This document shows positions 6,756-20,663 of a stretch of DNA of 58,162 nt, one piece after another. The position numbers and the translations under genes were made by a program. The stretch covers positions 1 to 58,162 of the forward strand of contig JAPLLI010000064.1 of the NCBI GenBank assembly GCA_026387615.1, given 5' to 3'. Each line of letters begins with the position of its first letter. Positions within the stretch are counted from its first letter, which is position 1. Origin of the DNA: Nitrospirota bacterium (GTDB lineage Bacteria > Nitrospirota > Nitrospiria > Nitrospirales > Nitrospiraceae). The notes below the pieces were generated by a model. The model searched no databases, was not told the origin of the DNA, and saw only the letters and a program-made list of their open reading frames with translations.

Positions 6756-7526
6756 ATGGTCGAACGATTTGACATCTCACTAAATACCCCGGCTGGACGG
6801 CTGACTACGGCCATCGACGTGCCGACGGGACTGATCCCCATCACGGCAATTGTGCCGGTCACTCGTCGCCTGGGCGAGGAAGCCGCGCAGCTGGAAGCCC
6901 AGCAGGCCATCGAAGCAGGCCAGACCATCTCCTGCCGAATGGGCTGCGCCGCCTGCTGCCGCATGCTGGTGCCGCTCTCTCCACCAGAAGCCTTTTCGCT
7001 GCGGGACTATGTGGGACAGCTGCCGACTGACCGGCGCACCCTTCTCTTGACGCGCCTCAGCGAGACGAGGGATCGGTTGAAAGAAGCGAACCTATGGGGT
7101 CAACTCAATGGCGTGGCAGAAGCCTCCAAGCCTATACCCGACGAAGCACTGGACCCGATTAACCGGGCCTACTATGCGCTGAGAATTCCCTGTCCCTATT
7201 TAGAAAATGAGATGTGTTCGATTTACGAGGCCAGGCCTGCCGCCTGCCGTGAACTTCTGGTCACTTCTCCGGCTGAACTCTGCCAGGATCTAGTCGAAAA
7301 TCCTGTCAGGCCCCTGCCGGTCTCGATGCGCATCGGTTCCATCCTGGGGCTGGTCTGGGGAACCTTGACCAACTCTCCCCCCCGGCTCATCCCGCTCCCG
7401 ATGGCCCTGGAATGGGCCGAGCGGCATGTAGCGGCATCCCGCCAGACCTGGCCCGGCTCATCCCTCTTGGACCAGGTCCTCGACAATATGTGGCGGTTTT
7501 TGAGCCAGGCATTTCAGAAGAAGTGA
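6756..7526 (+). CDS. YkgJ-family cysteine-cluster (UPF0153) zinc/iron-binding protein
   Basis: CRMGCAACCRMLVP (CxxCxxCC) plus a distal CPYL...CSIYEARPAACRE cluster. Confidence 0.7.
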   Translation: MVERFDISLNTPAGRLTTAIDVPTGLIPITAIVPVTRRLGEEAAQLEAQQAIEAGQTISCRMGCAACCRMLVPLSPPEAFSLRDYVGQLPTDRRTLLLTRLSETRDRLKEANLWGQLNGVAEASKPIPDEALDPINRAYYALRIPCPYLENEMCSIYEARPAACRELLVTSPAELCQDLVENPVRPLPVSMRIGSILGLVWGTLTNSPPRLIPLPMALEWAERHVAASRQTWPGSSLLDQVLDNMWRFLSQAFQKK

Positions 7527-7609
7527 TGGGTGATGGGTGACCAGTGATGAGACATGCAGGATTCACTCAGTCATCTTGCTCTTATCACCCATCACCGATC
7601 ACTCATCAC
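7523..7609. repeat. Family-1 heptamer hairpin (GTGATGR arms / YCATCAC arms), empty copy
   Basis: Left arm gtgatgggtgatgggtgaccagtgatgag, right arm tcacccatcaccgatcactcatcac. The ykgJ-like stop TGA (7524-7526) lies in the first heptamer. Confidence 0.8.
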
Positions 7610-7645: not shown

Positions 7646-8263
7646 ATGCAAAAGCCCGTCATTATCTGTTTAGACTTAGAAGGCGTGTTAGTGCCGGAGA
7701 TCTGGATCAACGTCGCACTCAAGACCGGCATCGAAGAACTCAAAATTACGACCCGCGAGATGCCGGATTATGACGCCTTGATGAAGCGCCGCCTGGCCAT
7801 TTTGGATCAGCACAAGCTCACCATTCACGATATCCAGCAGGTCATCGACAAGATGGGCCCGCTGGAGGGAGCCATTAATTTTGTCGCCTGGATTCGCGAG
7901 CGCTGCCAGGTGATCATCCTGTCTGACACGTTCTATCAGTTCGCCCAACCGCTGATGCGCCAGTTGGGATTTCCGGCGCTCTTTTGCAACCAGCTGGAGA
8001 TCGATCCCACGGGCCGTATCGTCAATTACCACATGCGGATGCAGAACCAGAAAAAACATTCGGTGGCGGCACTTAAGTCCCTCAATTTTCACATCCTGGC
8101 AGCAGGCGATGCCTACAACGACACAGCCATGTTGGGCGAAGCCCATGCGGGATTCTTCTTCTGTCCGCCGGATCACCTCCCCAAGGAGTTCCCGCAGTTT
8201 CCTGTGACGAAAACCTACGGGGAGCTGCAAGCGCGATTCGCAGAGGCGGGAGGGCTTACATAG
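7646..8263 (+). CDS. thrH: ThrH-type phosphoserine phosphatase / homoserine phosphotransferase (HAD family)
   Basis: Near-colinear resemblance to Pseudomonas ThrH as I remember it (CLDLEGVLVPEIWI, ILSDTFYQFAQPLMRQLGFP, AAGDAYNDTAMLGEAHAGFFF). Start set at ATG 7646, preceded by AAGGAGA; the upstream ORF extension is repeat-encoded. Confidence 0.85.
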   Translation: MQKPVIICLDLEGVLVPEIWINVALKTGIEELKITTREMPDYDALMKRRLAILDQHKLTIHDIQQVIDKMGPLEGAINFVAWIRERCQVIILSDTFYQFAQPLMRQLGFPALFCNQLEIDPTGRIVNYHMRMQNQKKHSVAALKSLNFHILAAGDAYNDTAMLGEAHAGFFFCPPDHLPKEFPQFPVTKTYGELQARFAEAGGLT

Positions 8264-8794
8264 CTATCAGCCCTCAGCGATCAGCTCCTCAAAAACTTCC
8301 TCCCCTTTGTAAGGGGAGGCTAGGAGGGGTAGAGAATCGTAACGCCAGGGAGATAGAGGCTCATGCCCAGAGCCACAAAGGGACAGGCAAGCTATCTCAA
8401 TCTTAAACGCCGACTTCGCTCTAACATGACCGGGCCGGAAACTCGACTATGGTTCCGGCTGAGAGCGAGACAATTTCAAGGACTCAAGTTTCGTCGACAA
8501 CATGGCATCGGACCATACATTGTAGACTTCTATTGCCCCGAACAGTCTCTCGTCATTGAAGTAGACGGCGACAGTCATGCCGGAGCCGAGCAGATCGTAC
8601 AGGACAGAGAACGAGAGAAGTATCTTCAGTCTCGCGGTCTTCGCGTGATTCGATACATCAACGACGATGTTGTAAAAAATCTGGACGGGGTTCTGGAAGA
8701 TTTATCCGCGAAGGTATCGTCAGGATCGACCTCCCCTAGCCCCTCCTTACGAAGGAGGGGTGAAAAAGCTGAAAGCTGATGGCTGATCGCTATC
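8262..8794. mobile_element. DUF559 gene bracketed by two concentric imperfect inverted repeats (candidate hairpin-borne cassette)
   Basis: Outer arms 8262-8287 and 8767-8794 match 21/25 as reverse complements by hand alignment. Inner arms 8301-8330 and 8729-8760 match 23/30. The cargo is visibly lower in G+C than the flanks. Confidence 0.45.
8363..8779 (+). CDS. DUF559 endonuclease-domain protein (Vsr/restriction-endonuclease-like fold)
   Basis: ETRLWFRLRARQFQGLKFRRQHGIGPYIVDFYCPEQSLVIEVDGDSH is the DUF559 signature. The last ~16 codons are encoded by the right repeat arm. Confidence 0.85.
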   Translation: MPRATKGQASYLNLKRRLRSNMTGPETRLWFRLRARQFQGLKFRRQHGIGPYIVDFYCPEQSLVIEVDGDSHAGAEQIVQDREREKYLQSRGLRVIRYINDDVVKNLDGVLEDLSAKVSSGSTSPSPSLRRRGEKAES

Positions 8795-10652
8795 TATCCC
8801 CATTCACCACTGCCAGCACCCGCCGACCGTACCGATCCGCCTTCAGCTCGCCGATGCCTGGAACTTCCAACAGGGCAGAGGGAGTCGCAGGCCTGTGGCT
8901 GGCAATGGCCTTCAAGGTCTTGTCGTGAAAGATCACGAAGGGCGCCACGTCCTCTTCCTCAGCCAGCTCCTTGCGAAGTTGGCGCAACCGCTCGAAGAGC
9001 TCCTGATCCTCCGGCGATGTTCGCAGAGCAGCCCCAGGCAGGGCCCTCTCGCGAGACGGCTTCTGTGCCGGCACATCCAACTGGCGCTCCTCCACAGCCT
9101 TCAGCGTGACGGCGGTGCCACTTTTCAGGACCTCCTGTCCTTTGCTCGTCACATCGATGGTGGGATATTCCGCCCCTTCAACCTGAAGATAGCCTGAGTC
9201 GATCAGGCCCTTCACGAGACCGGTCACGGATGGCTTCGAGAAGGCGCGACAGATTCCGTAGTTGGGGCAGCCGTCCCCGCCAAAGGCCAACAGAGCTTTC
9301 GAACGGCTTCCGCGAAGAATCTCGACGATGCGACTCACACCGAACCGTCCCCCGCACCAGGACACCGTCTCCAAAATGGCCTTCGCGGAACGAGCCTCAT
9401 CCAAACTGGTTTCCCTGCTCACCTGCTTCGATGGGGAAACACAACGATCGCAGAGGCCGCAAGGGCCCAGGGCCTTCTCCCCTTCATCACTGAAATAGTC
9501 AAGGATCGCGAGCTGACGACAGGTCGAGACCGTCACATAGCTCATCATTTCTTGAAGCAACGTTCTCATTCTCGCTGCTCGTTCTAAGCCTTCGGGATCT
9601 TTTCCTGCCAGCTGCATGAAATATTCCTGCGTAGCCAAGTCCCGCTCATGGAACAACAGGACGCAAGCGGCTGGCTGTCCGTCGCGGCCCGCCCGCCCGA
9701 CCTCTTGATAATAGGCCTCCAGACTTCCCGGGATGTCGAAATGGACGACTAGCCGGACGTCCGACTTGTCGATGCCCATGCCGAAAGCATTAGTCGCAGC
9801 CAGAATCCTCACAGTCCCCCGGCGAAATTCCTGGTGCACGAGCTGGCGCTCCTCATCGGAGAGACCGGCGTGGTAGTAGCCGACCGACTGGTGAGCATGG
9901 CCCAGCCAATCCGCTACCTCTTCGACCGCCCGCCGCGTGGCGCAATAGATCAGAATCGTGCCCTTCTCCCTCTCACGCACCAGCCGTTCCAAAATGGCTA
10001 GTTTCTCCTGGCGTGACTGACAGGGACGGACGGACAGGGCCAGATTGGGCCGACGGAAGCCTGAAACCAGCCGGAATGGATCGCGGAGCGACAGACGTTT
10101 GCAGAGATCAATTTGAACGCGGGCCGTGGCAGTGGCAGTCAGGGCGAGACAGGGAGGGTTCGTGAGCTCCTGCCGGAGCCTGCCGATCTTGAGATAGTCC
10201 GGCCTGAAGTCATGGCCCCATTGCGAAATACAATGGGCTTCGTCCACCACCAGCAACGAGACCCAGAGGCTGCGTAACAGCTCAAGAAACCCCTCATGCT
10301 GCATCCGTTCCGGCGCCAGGTAGAGCAACTGCAGCCGCTTCTGATGAAGGTCCTGAATCACTCGATACTTCTCAGATCCGGTCAGGCCTGAGTGAAAGGC
10401 CGCAGCGCTGATGTTGCGCTGCTTCAAACTGGCCACCTGATCTTGCATCAAGGCAATCAGGGGGGAAATGACCAGGGTCAGCCCTGGGAGTATTGTCGCA
10501 GGCAATTGATAACACAGGGATTTTCCCTGCCCTGTCGGCATGACGGTCATGGCGTCTCGCCCAGCCAGGACCGCGCGAATGACCTCCTCCTGACCAGGCC
10601 GAAAGGTCGCGAAGCCGAACCGTTCGCTCAGCTGTGTAGTCAGATCATCCAC
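8790..10652 (-). CDS. recQ: ATP-dependent DNA helicase RecQ
   Basis: FGFATFRPGQEEVI, MPTGQGKSLCYQLPA and DEAHCISQWGHDFRPDY motifs, a Zn-binding Cys cluster, and a C-terminal HRDC-like region. Confidence 0.95.
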   Translation of the reverse strand: MDDLTTQLSERFGFATFRPGQEEVIRAVLAGRDAMTVMPTGQGKSLCYQLPATILPGLTLVISPLIALMQDQVASLKQRNISAAAFHSGLTGSEKYRVIQDLHQKRLQLLYLAPERMQHEGFLELLRSLWVSLLVVDEAHCISQWGHDFRPDYLKIGRLRQELTNPPCLALTATATARVQIDLCKRLSLRDPFRLVSGFRRPNLALSVRPCQSRQEKLAILERLVREREKGTILIYCATRRAVEEVADWLGHAHQSVGYYHAGLSDEERQLVHQEFRRGTVRILAATNAFGMGIDKSDVRLVVHFDIPGSLEAYYQEVGRAGRDGQPAACVLLFHERDLATQEYFMQLAGKDPEGLERAARMRTLLQEMMSYVTVSTCRQLAILDYFSDEGEKALGPCGLCDRCVSPSKQVSRETSLDEARSAKAILETVSWCGGRFGVSRIVEILRGSRSKALLAFGGDGCPNYGICRAFSKPSVTGLVKGLIDSGYLQVEGAEYPTIDVTSKGQEVLKSGTAVTLKAVEERQLDVPAQKPSRERALPGAALRTSPEDQELFERLRQLRKELAEEEDVAPFVIFHDKTLKAIASHRPATPSALLEVPGIGELKADRYGRRVLAVVNGDR

Positions 10653-13136: not shown

Positions 13137-13218
13137 CAGTGATGCGTGATCGGTAAAGGGTAATCAGTGATCGCTTCCGAAGGCCTTCTCTCATCACGCA
13201 TCACCCATCACGACTCAC
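13137..13218. repeat. Family-1 heptamer hairpin, empty copy, between the two tat genes
   Basis: Left arm cagtgatgcgtgatcgg...taatcagtgatcg, right arm ctcatcacgcatcacccatcacgactcac. Confidence 0.75.
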
Positions 13219-15306: not shown

Positions 15307-15405
15307 AGCTATCAGCCGTCAGCTTTCAGCTCTCAGCTTTGAATCAGAGCAAGTTCACTCGAAAATCTTTCCTGGCTGAGGGCTGATCGCTGATAGCTGA
15401 CGGCT
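15307..15405. repeat. Family-2 heptamer hairpin (AGCNNTC arms), empty copy
   Basis: Left arm agctatcagccgtcagctttcagctctcagc, right arm gctgagggctgatcgctgatagctgacggct. The first 11 nt (agctatcagcc) are identical to the outer left arm of the DUF559 locus. Confidence 0.8.
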
Positions 15406-15452: not shown

Positions 15453-16028
15453 ATGGCGAAAGGCGCGAGACGAGCGGGACGAGGGGCAATCGTAACGGCC
15501 ATGATCCTGGCCCTCTCGGCGCTGCCGAGACTCCAGGCGGCGGAGCTGCCGATCACCAAGAATCCCCCGATCCCGGATTTTCAGAACCGTCCCCAAGACG
15601 TCACGCCCTACGATTTCGACGCCCCCCCGCAAGGCCTGTTCCTTACGATTACAACAGCGGAGGGGTTCGACGAAGAACTGGGCTTTCGCCGGACGCACGA
15701 AATTGTGCCAGTGAGACCGACCGACCGATTCCTCCCTGACACCCCGACCATCTTCATCGTCTTTCACCTCCACCAGCATTATCAGGGCTTCCAGGTATTC
15801 GGACGGCTCTTCCCTGAAACGGTACCGGGCCGCGACTCCGCTCTCCTGATCGGACAAGACGCCATGCACATTGCGCTGGAAGACGAAAGCGGCTATCTCA
15901 CCCTCTCCCCTCCCCAGGGCTCATGGAAACCAGGCCGATATAAAGTGGAAATTCACGTGGGAGAAGAGGTCAACGAGATGAGTCTGATGGGCACGATGCG
16001 ATTTACGATCGCCGAGGCGGGGAAGTGA
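15453..16028 (+). CDS. Hypothetical secreted protein
   Basis: ATG 15453 gives MAKGARRAGRGAIVTAMILALSALPRLQA/AE, a signal-peptide-like start. No recognisable domain. The stop TGA lies in the first heptamer of the next hairpin. Confidence 0.5.
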   Translation: MAKGARRAGRGAIVTAMILALSALPRLQAAELPITKNPPIPDFQNRPQDVTPYDFDAPPQGLFLTITTAEGFDEELGFRRTHEIVPVRPTDRFLPDTPTIFIVFHLHQHYQGFQVFGRLFPETVPGRDSALLIGQDAMHIALEDESGYLTLSPPQGSWKPGRYKVEIHVGEEVNEMSLMGTMRFTIAEAGK

Positions 16029-16104
16029 CGGGTGATCGGTGATGAGTGATGAGAAAAGACTGAACCCCTCTCAATCACTGTTCACTGCTCACCCATCACT
16101 GATC
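16025..16104. repeat. Family-1 heptamer hairpin, empty copy
   Basis: Left arm gtgacgggtgatcggtgatgagtgatgag, right arm ctcaatcactgttcactgctcacccatcactgatc. Confidence 0.8.
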
Positions 16105-16114
16105 CCTGCTCCGT

Positions 16115-16193: not shown

Positions 16194-16928
16194 ATGACCG
16201 TGTCATCCCATCCATGGGCCTCCGTCATCGTCCCGATCAAGGATGAGCGAGACAATCTCGTTCCCTTGACTGAGCAATTACTCAAGGCCCTGGAGGCCTG
16301 CGACGAATCACGCTCGGCTCCCTTCGAAATCCTCTTCATCGACGACGGCAGCACGGATGGCAGTTCGGACCTGCTCGATCGGCTTGCTGCAGACTATCCG
16401 TTGGTACGGGTCCTCCATTTCGACCGGAATTACGGACAGTCCTCGGCTTTCGACGCGGGGTTCAAACAGGCGACCGGCGATTTGATCATCACCATCGACG
16501 GGGACCTCCAAAACGACCCGGCCGACATCGGCACGTTGCTGCCCTACACAAAGACCTTTGATCTCGTCTGTGGATGGCGCACCAACCGGCACGACAGCCT
16601 CGTCCGGACATTGTCCTCGAAAATTGCCAACGCAGTACGAAGCGCCGTGACGGGCGATCAGGTGCATGATACCGGCTGCTCGCTGAAGATCTTCCGCCGG
16701 GCCGTGGTAGACAAACTGCAACTCTTCAACGGCATGCATCGATTTTTCCCGGCCCTGGCGCTGATGCATGGCTTTACGGTCACCGAAGTGCCGGTGCGCC
16801 ATTACGCTCGCAAGCACGGCCAGTCGAAATACGGCCTCGGCAACCGCCTCTTCAAAAGCCTGTACGACCTCATCGCCGTCCGTTGGATGCAGGGACGGGT
16901 ACTGCGATATAAATTCAGAGACAAGTGA
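16194..16928 (+). CDS. GT2 polyprenyl-phosphate glycosyltransferase (ArnC / Dpm1-like)
   Basis: SVIVPIKDE, FIDDGSTDGS, ITIDGDLQNDP and a short C-terminus typical of polyprenol-phosphate sugar synthases. Confidence 0.85.
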   Translation: MTVSSHPWASVIVPIKDERDNLVPLTEQLLKALEACDESRSAPFEILFIDDGSTDGSSDLLDRLAADYPLVRVLHFDRNYGQSSAFDAGFKQATGDLIITIDGDLQNDPADIGTLLPYTKTFDLVCGWRTNRHDSLVRTLSSKIANAVRSAVTGDQVHDTGCSLKIFRRAVVDKLQLFNGMHRFFPALALMHGFTVTEVPVRHYARKHGQSKYGLGNRLFKSLYDLIAVRWMQGRVLRYKFRDK

Positions 16929-17340
16929 TGAGTAATCGGTGATGGGTGATCAGTGGGCGGACCGTACGCACACACAAAGATCTCGAGGTTTGGAAGAGGG
17001 CTATGGATTTGGCTTCACATACATATTCGCTTACGCTGCAGTTTCCCAAAGAAGAACTCTACGGGTTAACCTCGCAGGTCAGACGCTCCGCCGTTTCGAT
17101 ACCAAGTAATATCGCGGAAGGCGCGGCCAGACATTCCAGAAAAGAATTTATCCAGTTTCTTCACATCGCTTCGGGGTCGGTTGCTGAACTCGAGACGCAA
17201 CTTCTTTTGGCCATACGACTAGGGTTCATTTCTGGTGACAGCGTGATGTCCCATATTGAGGAAGTCAGAAAATTGCTCCTTGGCCTACTCCGTTCGCTGA
17301 AAAAGAAACCCATCACTCATCACTCACCACCCATCACCAC
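16925..17340. mobile_element. Family-1 hairpin split by about 350 nt that encodes a four-helix-bundle protein (candidate cargo-bearing form of the repeat)
   Basis: Left arm 16925-16955 gtgatgagtaatcggtgatgggtgatcagtg; right arm 17309-17340 cccatcactcatcactcaccacccatcaccac. The interior is visibly lower in G+C. Confidence 0.45.
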
Positions 17341-17350
17341 ACCATTATGA
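16946..17350 (+). CDS. Four-helix-bundle protein (23S rRNA intervening-sequence protein family, TIGR02436-like)
   Basis: DLEVWKRAMDL...YGLTSQVRRSAVSIPSNIAEGAARHS.KEFIQFLHIASGSVAELETQL is the family signature. The only in-frame start (GTG 16946) lies inside the left repeat arm. Confidence 0.85.
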   Translation: MISGRTVRTHKDLEVWKRAMDLASHTYSLTLQFPKEELYGLTSQVRRSAVSIPSNIAEGAARHSRKEFIQFLHIASGSVAELETQLLLAIRLGFISGDSVMSHIEEVRKLLLGLLRSLKKKPITHHSPPITTPL

Positions 17351-17634
17351 GCATCGAACATATCTGGCTCGCCATCGGATTCCTCGGCCAAGGGCTGTTC
17401 TTCGGCCGCTGGGTCATCCAATGGATTGCCTCTGAGCGAAAGGCCGAGAGCCAGGTCCCGGTCGCCTTTTGGTACATGAGTTTGATCGGCGGACTCATCA
17501 CCCTGGCCTATGCGATCTATCGCAAAGACCCGGTCTTCATCGCGGGCCAGAGCATCGGATCCATCGTCTATATTCGCAACCTGACCCTGATTGCTCGGGC
17601 AACCCAAGCCGGCCCGGTGAAAGGTGATCGGTGA
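17347..17634 (+). CDS. Lipid-A-disaccharide synthase N-terminal domain (LAB_N) small membrane protein
   Basis: WLAIGFLGQGLFFGRWVIQWIASERKAES.VPVAFWYMSLIGG..LAYAIYRKDPVFI pattern. ATGA overlap with the preceding ORF. Confidence 0.75.
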   Translation: MSIEHIWLAIGFLGQGLFFGRWVIQWIASERKAESQVPVAFWYMSLIGGLITLAYAIYRKDPVFIAGQSIGSIVYIRNLTLIARATQAGPVKGDR

Positions 17635-17706
17635 TGGGTGACCTGCATGATCCAACTCCCGGCCCCTTACCTGTGACGCATCACCCATCATTCATCACAC
17701 GTCACC
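17616..17706. repeat. Family-1 heptamer hairpin spanning the LAB_N stop and the ArnT-like start
   Basis: Left arm ggtgaaaggtgatcggtgatgggtgacc, right arm gtgacgcatcacccatcattcatcacacgtcacc. Confidence 0.8.
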
Positions 17707-19454: not shown

Positions 19455-19520
19455 GAGGTTCGAGGTTCGAGGTTTTCGGAACTTCGAACCATGAACTTCG
19501 AACCATGAACTTCGAACCTC
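19455..19520. repeat. Family-3 heptamer hairpin (GAGGTTC / GAACYWY arms) between convergent genes
   Basis: gaggttcgaggttcgaggttttcg followed by gaacttcgaaccatgaacttcgaaccatgaacttcgaacctc. Confidence 0.8.
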
Positions 19521-19531
19521 TGGCGTCACGC

Positions 19532-20647
19532 CTACATCGGCACAAGACCCTTCAAAAGATAACTCGCCACCAACACTAACAACACCGCCGCGACAAACAA
19601 ACCCTCCGCCACGACAGTCCGTCCCCCTACGGGAGTATCTGCCATGGGCAAGTCCTGACCATGGAGCCCCTCCAGCCAATGGGCCACTGAAACGAACAGC
19701 ACCGCCGTCATGACAAACAGAGAGCCGGTCGTCATCCCTAGGCCCAGTCCCATGAGCGAGCGAGTCAGAGACCCGGATAACCAGGCTGGCCGCCATGAGG
19801 ATCGCATCGTCCACACAACATGGCCGACTAGTCCCGCCAGGGTAAGCACCCCGCCGCCGCACACAAACGATTGCGCAATCCAGCCATTCGACGGAAGCTG
19901 CGCGATCGTCCAGACGAACGCCAGCGTCACCACGAAAAATGGCACGATCCGGCAAACGGCGGTCCTGGCCGCAGCGCGCCATTCGCGCCAGGGATGGATA
20001 CCAATCATGCCCATGACGCAACCGAGCGCCGCCCCTCCTGCCACGTCGGTCGGATAATGAGACCCGCGAAACACCCGACTGGCGGCAATGGCCATTGCCA
20101 CAGAGAACAACAGCCATCTCGCTCGTGGAAACTTTGCAGCGAGCACTGTGGCCACCGCGAACGATGCGGCCGCATGACCGGACGGAAACGAGTCCCACCC
20201 GCTCCCGCTGACAGGAGAGAATTCGAAGTTGTCCGTATCCATGAACTTGGGGCGGGGACGGCCAATCGTATGTTTTAAAATCGTCGCGACCACCGCCACG
20301 AGACCGTGCGCCATGAGACTCTGCCTGCCTGCGTCTTTCCACTGCTGGCGTTTCAATCCATACCCGACCGCCAGCAACAGAAGACTCAGGATCACCAGCG
20401 ACTCCCCCTTGCCGAGGCGGTCACCGAGATCGCTGAACAGAACCAGCCAGGGGTTGGGGACAGAACCGACCGGCAGATAGAGGGAACGAACAAACCTGGC
20501 CAGAGGCAGGTCCCACTCAAACAGGCCCACGAACACGAGGAGGAGGGCGACGCACGAAAAAACAAGCGGCGCGTGACGAGTGATCAGTGACGGGTGATGA
20601 GCGGTCGAGACAGGATCTCGATCGTGGCTATGCTCATCACTCATCAC
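19532..20647 (-). CDS. PAP2-family membrane phosphatase (lipid phosphate phosphatase, LpxE/F- or UppP-like role possible)
   Basis: KHTIGRPRP, PSGHAAASFA and SRVFRGSHYPTDV are the three PAP2 motifs. It has a long multi-TM C-terminal extension. The GTG start and first ~25 codons are repeat-encoded. Confidence 0.8.
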   Translation of the reverse strand: MMSDEHSHDRDPVSTAHHPSLITRHAPLVFSCVALLLVFVGLFEWDLPLARFVRSLYLPVGSVPNPWLVLFSDLGDRLGKGESLVILSLLLLAVGYGLKRQQWKDAGRQSLMAHGLVAVVATILKHTIGRPRPKFMDTDNFEFSPVSGSGWDSFPSGHAAASFAVATVLAAKFPRARWLLFSVAMAIAASRVFRGSHYPTDVAGGAALGCVMGMIGIHPWREWRAAARTAVCRIVPFFVVTLAFVWTIAQLPSNGWIAQSFVCGGGVLTLAGLVGHVVWTMRSSWRPAWLSGSLTRSLMGLGLGMTTGSLFVMTAVLFVSVAHWLEGLHGQDLPMADTPVGGRTVVAEGLFVAAVLLVLVASYLLKGLVPM

Positions 20648-20663
20648 TGATCACCCTTCACTG
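20573..20663. repeat. Family-1 heptamer hairpin overlapping the PAP2 start
   Basis: Left arm gtgacgagtgatcagtgacgggtgatgag, right arm gctcatcactcatcactgatcacccttcactg. Confidence 0.8.

Follow-up and report, generated by a model that had tools for sequence, protein, structure and literature searches.

A DUF559 nuclease gene bracketed by inverted BoxC/PIT/TM-type modules in the loop of a host heptamer hairpin in a Nitrospirota bacterium

The interval between the thrH and recQ genes of a 58,162-nucleotide contig from a Nitrospirota bacterium (JAPLLI010000064.1 of assembly GCA_026387615.1; hereafter the window, meaning the whole stretch of DNA that was analysed) contains a gene for a DUF559 family nuclease that is flanked on both sides by inverted copies of the BoxC/PIT/TM intrastrand-triplex motif. 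This unit is a cassette with its own terminal repeats that lies within the loop of a different hairpin, built from tandem heptamers of the host genome. The nested arrangement had been recognized in a preliminary description made from the sequence alone, in which both sets of repeats were taken together as a possible homing or self-mobilizing cassette. The pairing of module and gene recurs across the DUF559 family in many phyla, and at the thrH-recQ site the cassette has been gained, cleanly lost at least twice, inverted once and pseudogenized once. The locus is probably best explained as a discrete cassette, consisting of DUF559 and two TM modules and located in a host hairpin loop, whose nuclease would act on the modules.

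The cassette (module, DUF559 gene, module) spans positions 8299 to 8760, given here and below as window coordinates on the plus strand, and its borders were drawn from the similarity between copies in different contexts. On its left is a gene encoding a thrH-like HAD phosphatase (7646–8263, plus strand; Pfam Hydrolase/HAD) of 205 amino acids (aa), the orthologues of which are also 205 aa in length and share 89–92% identity, versus approximately 60% with Pseudomonas proteins. On its right is the convergent recQ helicase gene (8790–10652, minus strand; Pfam DEAD, Helicase_C, RQC and HRDC). The left outer arm (8262–8291) begins within the thrH stop codon TAG (8261–8263), consists of family-2 heptamers (AGCTATC AGCCCTC AGCGATC AGCTCCTC) and is separated by a short A-rich spacer from the first hairpin of the cassette, H1. 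The right outer arm (8765–8794) carries family-2 heptamers on the opposite strand (AGCTGAAAGCTGATGGCTGATCGCT) and holds both the DUF559 stop codon (TGA, 8777–8779) and the recQ stop codon, which reads CTA on the plus strand (8790–8792). A repeat search pairs 8269–8286 with 8774–8791 at 83% and 8262–8278 with 8768–8784 at 82%. The DUF559 gene itself (8363–8779, plus strand, 138 aa) ends in 16 codons (8729–8776) encoded by the C-rich head of the right module, its hairpin H2 and the outer arm, in agreement with the preliminary description. The other features described there are likewise present: the two sets of paired arms, the 9-bp mini-hairpin in each inner arm, the stop-codon overlaps and an empty look-alike hairpin at 15307–15405. 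The lower G+C content of the cargo holds as a modest drop (0.50–0.535 versus 0.55–0.63 in the flanks). A search of Rfam over 8150–8900 returned nothing relevant, with matches to mir-49 and Hammerhead at chance level only.

The left terminal module (8299–8333, plus strand) is of the BoxC/PIT/TM type and consists, in order, of a pyrimidine arm CCTCCCC(TT), the loop TGT, a purine arm (AA)GGGGAGG, the linker CTA, a third strand GGAGGGG and a final TAGA. Its hairpin H1 is CCTCCCCTT-TGT-AAGGGGAGG (8299–8319), followed by CTAGGAGGGGTAGA (8320–8333). The right terminal module (8726–8760, minus strand) has the same motif when read on the minus strand, namely CCCCTCC, a loop, GGAGGGG, the linker CTA and the third strand GGGGAGG; on the plus strand it therefore appears as a C-rich head, TCGACCTCCCCTAG at 8726–8739, preceding hairpin H2, CCCCTCCTT-ACG-AAGGAGGGG (8740–8760). 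The two mini-hairpins, CCTCCCCTTTGTAAGGGGAGG and CCCCTCCTTACGAAGGAGGGG, are the sole hairpins in the 58 kb with a 9-bp stem and a pyrimidine 5′ arm, and their folding as single-stranded DNA gives z = −2.2 for H1 and −3.3 for H2. A repeat search pairs 8299–8333 with 8726–8760 over 35 nt at 77% complementarity, however the reading of these arms as one long-range stem was replaced by a pair of local hairpins that each carry their own mirror third strand; it is this organization that makes the stems look swapped (CCTCCCC versus CCCCTCC) in the long-range alignment. Scored as a Rho-independent terminator, H1 qualifies on the minus strand only and H2 on neither strand.

The E. coli representatives of the repeat class, termed TMECO, have the consensus CCCTCNCCC-N3-6-GGGNGAGGG-N3-GGGNGAGGG, and the motif reads C-G-G or C-C-G depending on the strand (PMC4666352). 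It has been found in more than 260 genomes and linked to genomic instability and rearrangement hot spots, and the 23 TM copies of strain MG1655 include five pairs in inverted configuration (PMC4666352). Both window modules follow this three-block layout, with loops within the 3–6 nt range and a 3-nt linker: the left module reads CCTCCCC-TTTGTAA-GGGGAGG-CTA-GGAGGGG and the right module, on the minus strand, CCCCTCC-TTCGTAA-GGAGGGG-CTA-GGGGAGG. In each, the third strand that follows the CTA linker mirrors the purine arm at all seven of its seven positions, which is the geometry of an antiparallel purine-motif triplex. Triplex formation in the window modules is predicted from this layout, the computed folding being that of the hairpins. 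The inner arms are inverted copies of the BoxC/PIT/TM motif and belong to the DUF559 gene; their membership in a known repeat class had escaped the preliminary description.

The association between modules and gene was examined in 80 diverse DUF559 loci from a motif-based metagenome scan, chosen by protein motif alone and with identities of 39–83%, in which perfect, GC-rich hairpins with a pyrimidine 5′ arm were counted, the flanks being the 200 nt on each side of the gene. Hairpin density was 4.76 per kb upstream and 4.12 per kb downstream of the gene, versus 0 per kb in the gene core and 0.18 per kb elsewhere, and 132 hairpins were observed versus 1.1 ± 0.9 in dinucleotide shuffles. The preliminary description had allowed for the arms proving to be independent repeats with no enrichment around DUF559; for the inner arms, an approximately 25-fold enrichment beside these genes was found instead. 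The polarity of the hairpins is nearly uniform, with the pyrimidine arm first in 133 and the purine arm first in two, and 69 hairpins are accompanied by a mirror third strand at 85% or above, compared with 16.9 in a permuted control, mirror outnumbering direct matches 76:15. Of the 65 loci for which both flanks are available, a hairpin is present on at least one side in 56 and on both sides in 37. The order of elements is also shared, an upstream hairpin being followed by a G-rich tail and a complementary C-rich head preceding the downstream hairpin, and spacing is conserved, with the hairpin located approximately 18–39 nt past the end of the DUF559 domain. All six plasmid or chromid loci, from four phyla, have hairpins on both sides, as do two (L095 and L096) of the five loci examined on viral contigs, where a homologue search had yielded six. 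The architecture recurs in Pseudanabaena, Picosynechococcus, Synechocystis, Deinococcus, Azospirillum and Sphingomonas, at E. coli ycjD, and at N. gonorrhoeae NGO0050 (structure 3hrl), which has one module per side. The gene-plus-module unit is thus characteristic of the DUF559 family as a whole, across many phyla. A limited literature search, which is not proof of absence, found no paper linking DUF559 to BoxC/PIT/TM repeats.

The same modules are visible at the protein level. Among family representatives with at most 50% mutual identity, peptides such as TSPxPSLxRRG, PSPQPSPRRGEG and HPNPLPEGEG are common at the end of DUF559 proteins and occasional at the start, and these tails are translations, in different frames, of the C-run and G-run hairpins. 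Co-variation between protein and hairpin shows a weak positive trend only (Spearman 0.085), close proteins sharing arms and distant ones not. In one representative, P0154, a module-like peptide, FHPPSSPLNKGGKRGV, is apparently inserted within the DUF559 domain at residues ~28–44, and may represent a module that landed inside the gene.

The product of the window gene matches PF04480 with 113.3 bits (cut-off 20.6; E = 6.5 × 10−33). Its score of 79 bits against the NCBIfam model PRK09767 (YcjD equivalog), which has a threshold of 218, indicates that it is not a YcjD equivalog. An AlphaFold2 model has an overall pLDDT of 89.9, with residues 1–120 confident and the module-encoded tail (121–138) at 59–64. 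Foldseek comparison of this model retrieves the N. gonorrhoeae structure 3hrl (1 × 10−7), the catalytic domain of the homing endonuclease I-Bth0305I (3r3p; 1.8 × 10−4, target TM-score 0.77) and 1vsr (4 × 10−3), and sequence searches give E = 4 × 10−19 for 3hrl and E = 0.02 for 3r3p. Across 47 diverse members of the family, residues E66, D68, H72 and D81 do not vary. The protein is thus predicted to have a Vsr-like PD-(D/E)XK fold with putative catalytic residues in place. EDxHD homing endonucleases share a Vsr-like core (PMC3384342), and one paper labels a DUF559 gene EDxHD (PMC9403480). PADLOC reports weak, domain-level matches only (DpdF, a "homing endonuclease" model and mREase_II) and does not class the gene as a defence system. 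Recognition of a Vsr-type CTWGG site is not claimed here, CTAG being enriched only about 3-fold near the modules.

The outer arms have a different origin. Allowing at most one mismatch, the pattern AGCNNTCAGCNNTCAGC has 11 matches in the window versus 0.09 expected, all of them, apart from one weak match, located at 8262–8285, 8768–8791, 15307–15337 and 15375–15405. The hairpin at 15307–15405, with 34-nt arms and a loop of about 33 nt, is of the same AGCNNTC type (family 2), opens with the same AGCTATCAGCC and folds as DNA at −23.4 kcal/mol (z = −4.2); it illustrates the cargo-free form of the thrH-recQ hairpin. Several heptamer families build such intergenic hairpins between approximately 7.5 and 20.7 kb, as found with Tandem Repeats Finder and an inverted-repeat scan: hairpins of the GTGATGN type are located at 7522–7603, 13139–13204, 16024–16111, 17616–17706 and 20573–20661, and one of the GAGGTTC/GAACTTC type at 19455–19518. 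The tandem-heptamer hairpins, of at least three sequence families, all fall within the first 21 kb of the window, with almost none between 21 and 58 kb, and no description of such hairpins in Nitrospira was found in the literature. At orthologous loci the family-2 arms vary in unit sequence and copy number (1.5 to 4 units), whereas the inner hairpins are constant. In an outgroup Nitrospira (L019) the heptamer hairpin that separates thrH from recQ encloses no gene, and at another locus (L015) the left heptamer arm is gone and the cassette is kept. DUF559 cassettes in other genomic contexts are mostly without heptamers, and those in other phyla have none. The outer arms, which the preliminary description had counted as part of the element, are generic intergenic hairpins of the host, independent repeats that also stand beside unrelated genes.

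A second small gene between heptamer arms was observed at 16924–17350, encoding a four-helix-bundle protein of the 23S_rRNA_IVP family (PF05635, E = 1.7 × 10−38). Its arms are of the family-1 GTGATGN type (16924–16955 and 17308–17338), its C-terminal tail is encoded by an arm, and inner modules are absent. Its neighbours in the operon are genes for a GT2 glycosyltransferase, the exact protein of which is not on record, and a small membrane protein, and none of the loci retrieved contains a homologue of the IVP gene. The loops of heptamer hairpins may be landing pads for small genes.

The history of the thrH-recQ site can be followed in related genomes. Close DUF559 homologues (76–91% identity, same length) are abundant in Nitrospiraceae metagenomes, and thrH and recQ flank every one that was looked up. 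Among species-representative genomes scanned with thrH, 13 Nitrospiraceae species keep the convergent thrH-recQ pair, which is ancestral. As the preliminary description had proposed could be checked by alignment, empty sites exist at this exact position, namely in L017 and L018 (with ~40 nt between the genes), L019, L023, L026 and L027, and occupied sites comprise the window, L001–L014, L015, L022, L107 and L108. In a neighbour-joining tree of thrH plus recQ, built without support values, the outgroup lineages have an empty site, while L017 and L018, also empty, fall within the occupied clade. The simplest reading is one gain in a Nitrospira subclade, after its split from these outgroups, followed by at least two clean losses, the alternative being repeated gain at the same site. 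In L115 (1400–1930) the whole cassette is inverted relative to thrH and recQ at the same site, in an assembly with many frameshifts. In L015 (4179–4463; metagenome-assembled genome WB-IL-04) DUF559 is truncated at 94 aa and carries D55 to G, yet both modules are present and H2 shows a compensatory CCTCTCC/GGAGAGA change. The loop of the empty site in L019 (1170–1259) reads GGAGGGGacagaaaattcaaCCTCCCT, with the purine arm first; it resembles the right and left ends of a cassette joined together, and could not be produced by simple deletion of an occupied site.

Intact DUF559 orthologues have ratios of nonsynonymous to synonymous substitution (dN/dS) of 0.20–0.46, versus 0.05–0.11 for thrH, and the gene is therefore functional but less constrained. 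Since its gain, the cassette has been inherited mostly vertically and under purifying selection. The preliminary description would have given up its proposal had DUF559 turned out to be vertically inherited here without arms; the gene is indeed vertically inherited at this locus, but together with its arms. For the genome pairs L001/L011, L013/L022 and L022/L108, the synonymous divergence (dS) of DUF559 is 2–4 times below that of its neighbour thrH (e.g., 0.18 versus 0.68), and nucleotide identity peaks at 93–97% over the 5′ two-thirds of DUF559, which is only a hint of cassette-specific lateral exchange between lineages. The window cassette is an old, mostly vertically inherited insertion and not an active element.

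Signs of mobility come from other sites and genomes. Six loci (L109–L114) contain DUF559 genes that are 62–77% identical, lie in unrelated contexts and have essentially the same H1 and H2, including a cassette on a contig of 40% GC (L113). H1 is nearly invariant among orthologous and differently located copies alike, and the similarity between contexts extends from 2–3 nt ahead of H1 through the final base of H2. Doublets of modules without a gene (hairpin, tail, spacer, head, hairpin) are present at L109, L118, L127, L135 and L185. On a chromid of Sphingomonas parapaucimobilis (L105, 890–1375) a DUF559 cassette with modules is located between sufB and sufC, which are adjacent in most other records with a span shorter by approximately 460 nt; 12 places on this replicon match parts of the cassette query. 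At the same sufB-sufC junction, Azospirillum lipoferum 4B (H60) has a GIY-YIG nuclease gene. In E. coli, a TM/BoxC-type module overlaps ycjD at its 3′ end, with two further modules after it, one of them the published TMECO no. 9 (L187/L189; NC_000913.3, 1351204–1351760); TMECO no. 9 of MG1655 lies approximately 170 nt 3′ of ycjD, with two degenerate modules between them. Phylogroups A, B1 and C lack the eefRABCD operon and are reported to have ycjD in its place (PMC12817139). A further sign is the enrichment of DUF559 proteins among predicted programmed-inversion targets (PMC9881135). These observations support the inner unit as a discrete, horizontally moving cassette. The self-mobilizing cassette of the preliminary description is thereby borne out as regards presence and absence at one site, an inverted copy, the same modules elsewhere and gene-less doublets, but not as regards recent or self-driven mobility.

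How the cassette might move can be proposed from its parts. The DUF559 nuclease would act on its own flanking modules once these leave the B-form, as a hairpin or triplex, in single-stranded or supercoiled DNA, and repair of the resulting nick or break would insert a copy of the unit at related module sites, much as in homing. Modules that have no gene may be spread or destabilized in trans by the same activity, in the way that RAYT acts on REP/REPIN. A stronger version, in which DUF559 is the dedicated partner nuclease of BoxC/PIT/TM repeats, the gene with its modules being autonomous and single modules or doublets being non-autonomous derivatives or targets, is put forward tentatively and is the less secure part of the proposal. 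If it is correct, the cutting of extruded hairpin or triplex DNA by DUF559 would cause the spread of modules and the instability of the genome near them.

Several observations weigh against a cassette moved by its nuclease, and against the partnership with the repeats. In six different contexts the ends of the cassette show no direct repeats indicative of target-site duplication, and no recombinase or transposase is recognizable in the cassette, in which Pfam gives only DUF559 and MTES_1575. The 58-kb window has just the two cassette modules, one cassette and no solo module, and inheritance at this locus is vertical and old, with flanking proteins at ~84% and DUF559 at ~77% identity. The neighbour-joining tree of thrH plus recQ carries no support values. 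By the strict hairpin criteria, modules are missing at three of 11 plasmid or viral DUF559 loci and nine of 65 metagenome loci. Modules of the E. coli family occupy a median of 14 places per genome (range 1–25) versus a single ycjD, and a spread sample of E. coli, taken without assignment to phylogroups, has 1 to 24 places per genome. In published work, triplex formation by the TM motif was observed in vitro but not in vivo, PIT/TM elements showed neither promoter nor terminator activity, and neither mobility genes nor common neighbour functions were found near TMECO sites (PMC4666352).

Part of this evidence would fit an explanation in which DUF559 is trapped cargo, the modules or doublets being unstable or mobile through some other host process such as replication slippage or non-B recombination. 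TM loci are rearrangement hot spots whatever their neighbours and the majority of those in E. coli lie well away from ycjD (PMC4666352), gene-less doublets exist, and modules in E. coli far outnumber DUF559 genes. Such a passenger role does not explain why the same nuclease family is the cargo in Nitrospirota, Cyanobacteria, Deinococcota and alpha-, beta- and gamma-proteobacteria, and it sits poorly with the conserved distance of the hairpin from the domain end and with purifying selection on DUF559; we regard it as unlikely, though it is the most serious competitor.

Single copy, vertical inheritance and purifying selection would also be expected of an ordinary Vsr-like repair nuclease, with the hairpins serving as terminators, insulators or mRNA-stabilizing stem-loops that shield a small gene from its convergent neighbours. 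The hairpins do lie exactly at the gene boundaries, and H1 on the minus strand scores as a terminator, with its stem plus AAGTTTTTGA. However, the arm polarity of 133 versus 2 and the mirror third strand are not features of terminators, H2 has no T-run, and the lack of terminator and promoter activity in PIT elements noted above tells against this role. The clean presence and absence of the cassette, its inversion, the pseudogene, the gene-less doublets and the occurrence of the same modules in a 40%-GC host likewise make a housekeeping function improbable.

The cassette inverted as a block in L115 raises the question of an invertible switch, in which heptamers, modules or both would be sites of programmed inversion altering the expression of DUF559 or read-through from thrH and recQ. 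"DUF559 domain-containing protein" is indeed 14-fold enriched among predicted programmed-inversion targets (PMC9881135), an enrichment that arises because the inverted modules overlap coding sequence. One inverted copy among approximately 20 orthologous loci points to rare recombination between inverted repeats rather than to a switch, no invertase gene lies nearby, and the L115 assembly is rich in frameshifts, so that a switch is very improbable. That the whole double inverted repeat, heptamers included, is a self-mobilizing element is scarcely credible: its arms are flush with both stop codons and L110, in a different context, has one AGCTGTCAGC beside H1, but several heptamer families occupy many intergenic sites devoid of DUF559, the empty L019 site retains its hairpin, L015 lost the left arm and kept the cassette, and copies in other contexts and phyla lack heptamers.

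The cassette of DUF559 and two TM modules, as the favoured explanation, joins two long-standing puzzles. DUF559 is a very large family (27,076 representative clusters at E < 1 × 10−3) with no assigned biological role, and for BoxC/PIT/TM repeats, known since the 1990s, no function, spreading mechanism or associated gene has been found (PMC4666352). The coupling described here suggests that DUF559 is the missing partner enzyme of the repeat, and gives each side a concrete, testable hypothesis in tractable organisms, namely E. coli K-12 (ycjD) and N. gonorrhoeae (NGO0050). It also exposes an annotation artefact, the "PSPxPSLxRRG" and "PLPEGEG"-type tails of DUF559 proteins being module-encoded and predicted to be disordered. 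Elsewhere in the window, a 108-nt tandem repeat of 5.4 copies (390–966) lies inside an open reading frame (219–1145); its consensus translates to a 36-aa unit that, by the look of the sequence, resembles a Sel1-type repeat, and it appears ordinary.

Among known repeats, the outer arms are most readily compared with the STRR arrays of cyanobacteria and the TAACTGA arrays of Beggiatoaceae (PMC4679880), which are also intergenic tandem arrays of 7-nt units, occur in several sequence families and differ in copy number between strains. Unlike these, the outer-arm arrays described here form inverted pairs and long hairpins, often flush with stop codons. The inner modules share with BoxC/PIT/TM elements (Bachellier 1999; Hoyne and Maher 2000; Holder et al. 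2015, PMC4666352) the three-block layout with spacings of 3–6 nt and 3 nt, the C-G-G and C-C-G reading of the two strands, the occurrence in inverted pairs and loci tied to rearrangement. They differ from the published E. coli copies, which were described as always intergenic and without an associated mobility function, in that they bracket a gene and overlap its 3′ coding end; their arms are CCTCCCC/GGGGAGG rather than the CCCTCNCCC of TMECO, and only two copies are present in the 58 kb.

The protein is comparable in fold to EDxHD homing endonucleases such as I-Bth0305I (Dassa 2009, PMC2677866; Taylor 2011–2012, PMC3384342), with which it shares the E, D, H, D core; I-Bth0305I is its second-best structural match, and some members of that group are free-standing selfish genes. 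The DUF559 gene, however, is intergenic and not located in an intron, intein or phage gene, and in contrast to I-Bth0305I it encodes a single domain of 138 aa with no extra DNA-binding part, flanked by repeat modules and with weak sequence similarity. Empty alleles of the kind expected in a homing-type context exist at thrH-recQ. By the measures used for classical insertion sequences (IS) and miniature inverted-repeat transposable elements, the cassette has neither a target-site duplication nor a transposase. It resembles IS200/IS605-type elements in having hairpin ends, in the lack of a target-site duplication and in ends that look like structures recognized in single-stranded DNA, however it encodes no TnpA or TnpB, its ends are true inverted repeats, and transposition of the cassette is inferred at most.

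A further parallel is with RAYT and the REP/REPIN repeats (Nunvar 2010; Bertels and Rainey 2011; Di Nocera 2013, PMC3733652), which is a resemblance in working and not membership. DUF559 is a Vsr-like PD-(D/E)XK nuclease rather than a Y1 HUH (IS200-like) transposase, and the modules have a triplex-type third strand rather than the GTAG or CGTC head of REP, the link between enzyme and repeat being drawn here from sequence alone. In both systems, one nuclease gene lies between inverted short palindromic repeats, gene-less inverted doublets and dispersed copies accompany it, and inheritance is mostly vertical with occasional loss. Should DUF559 prove to be the partner of BoxC/PIT/TM modules, the two would constitute a second, RAYT-independent partnership between nuclease and repeat, extending across Nitrospirota, Cyanobacteria, Deinococcota and Proteobacteria.

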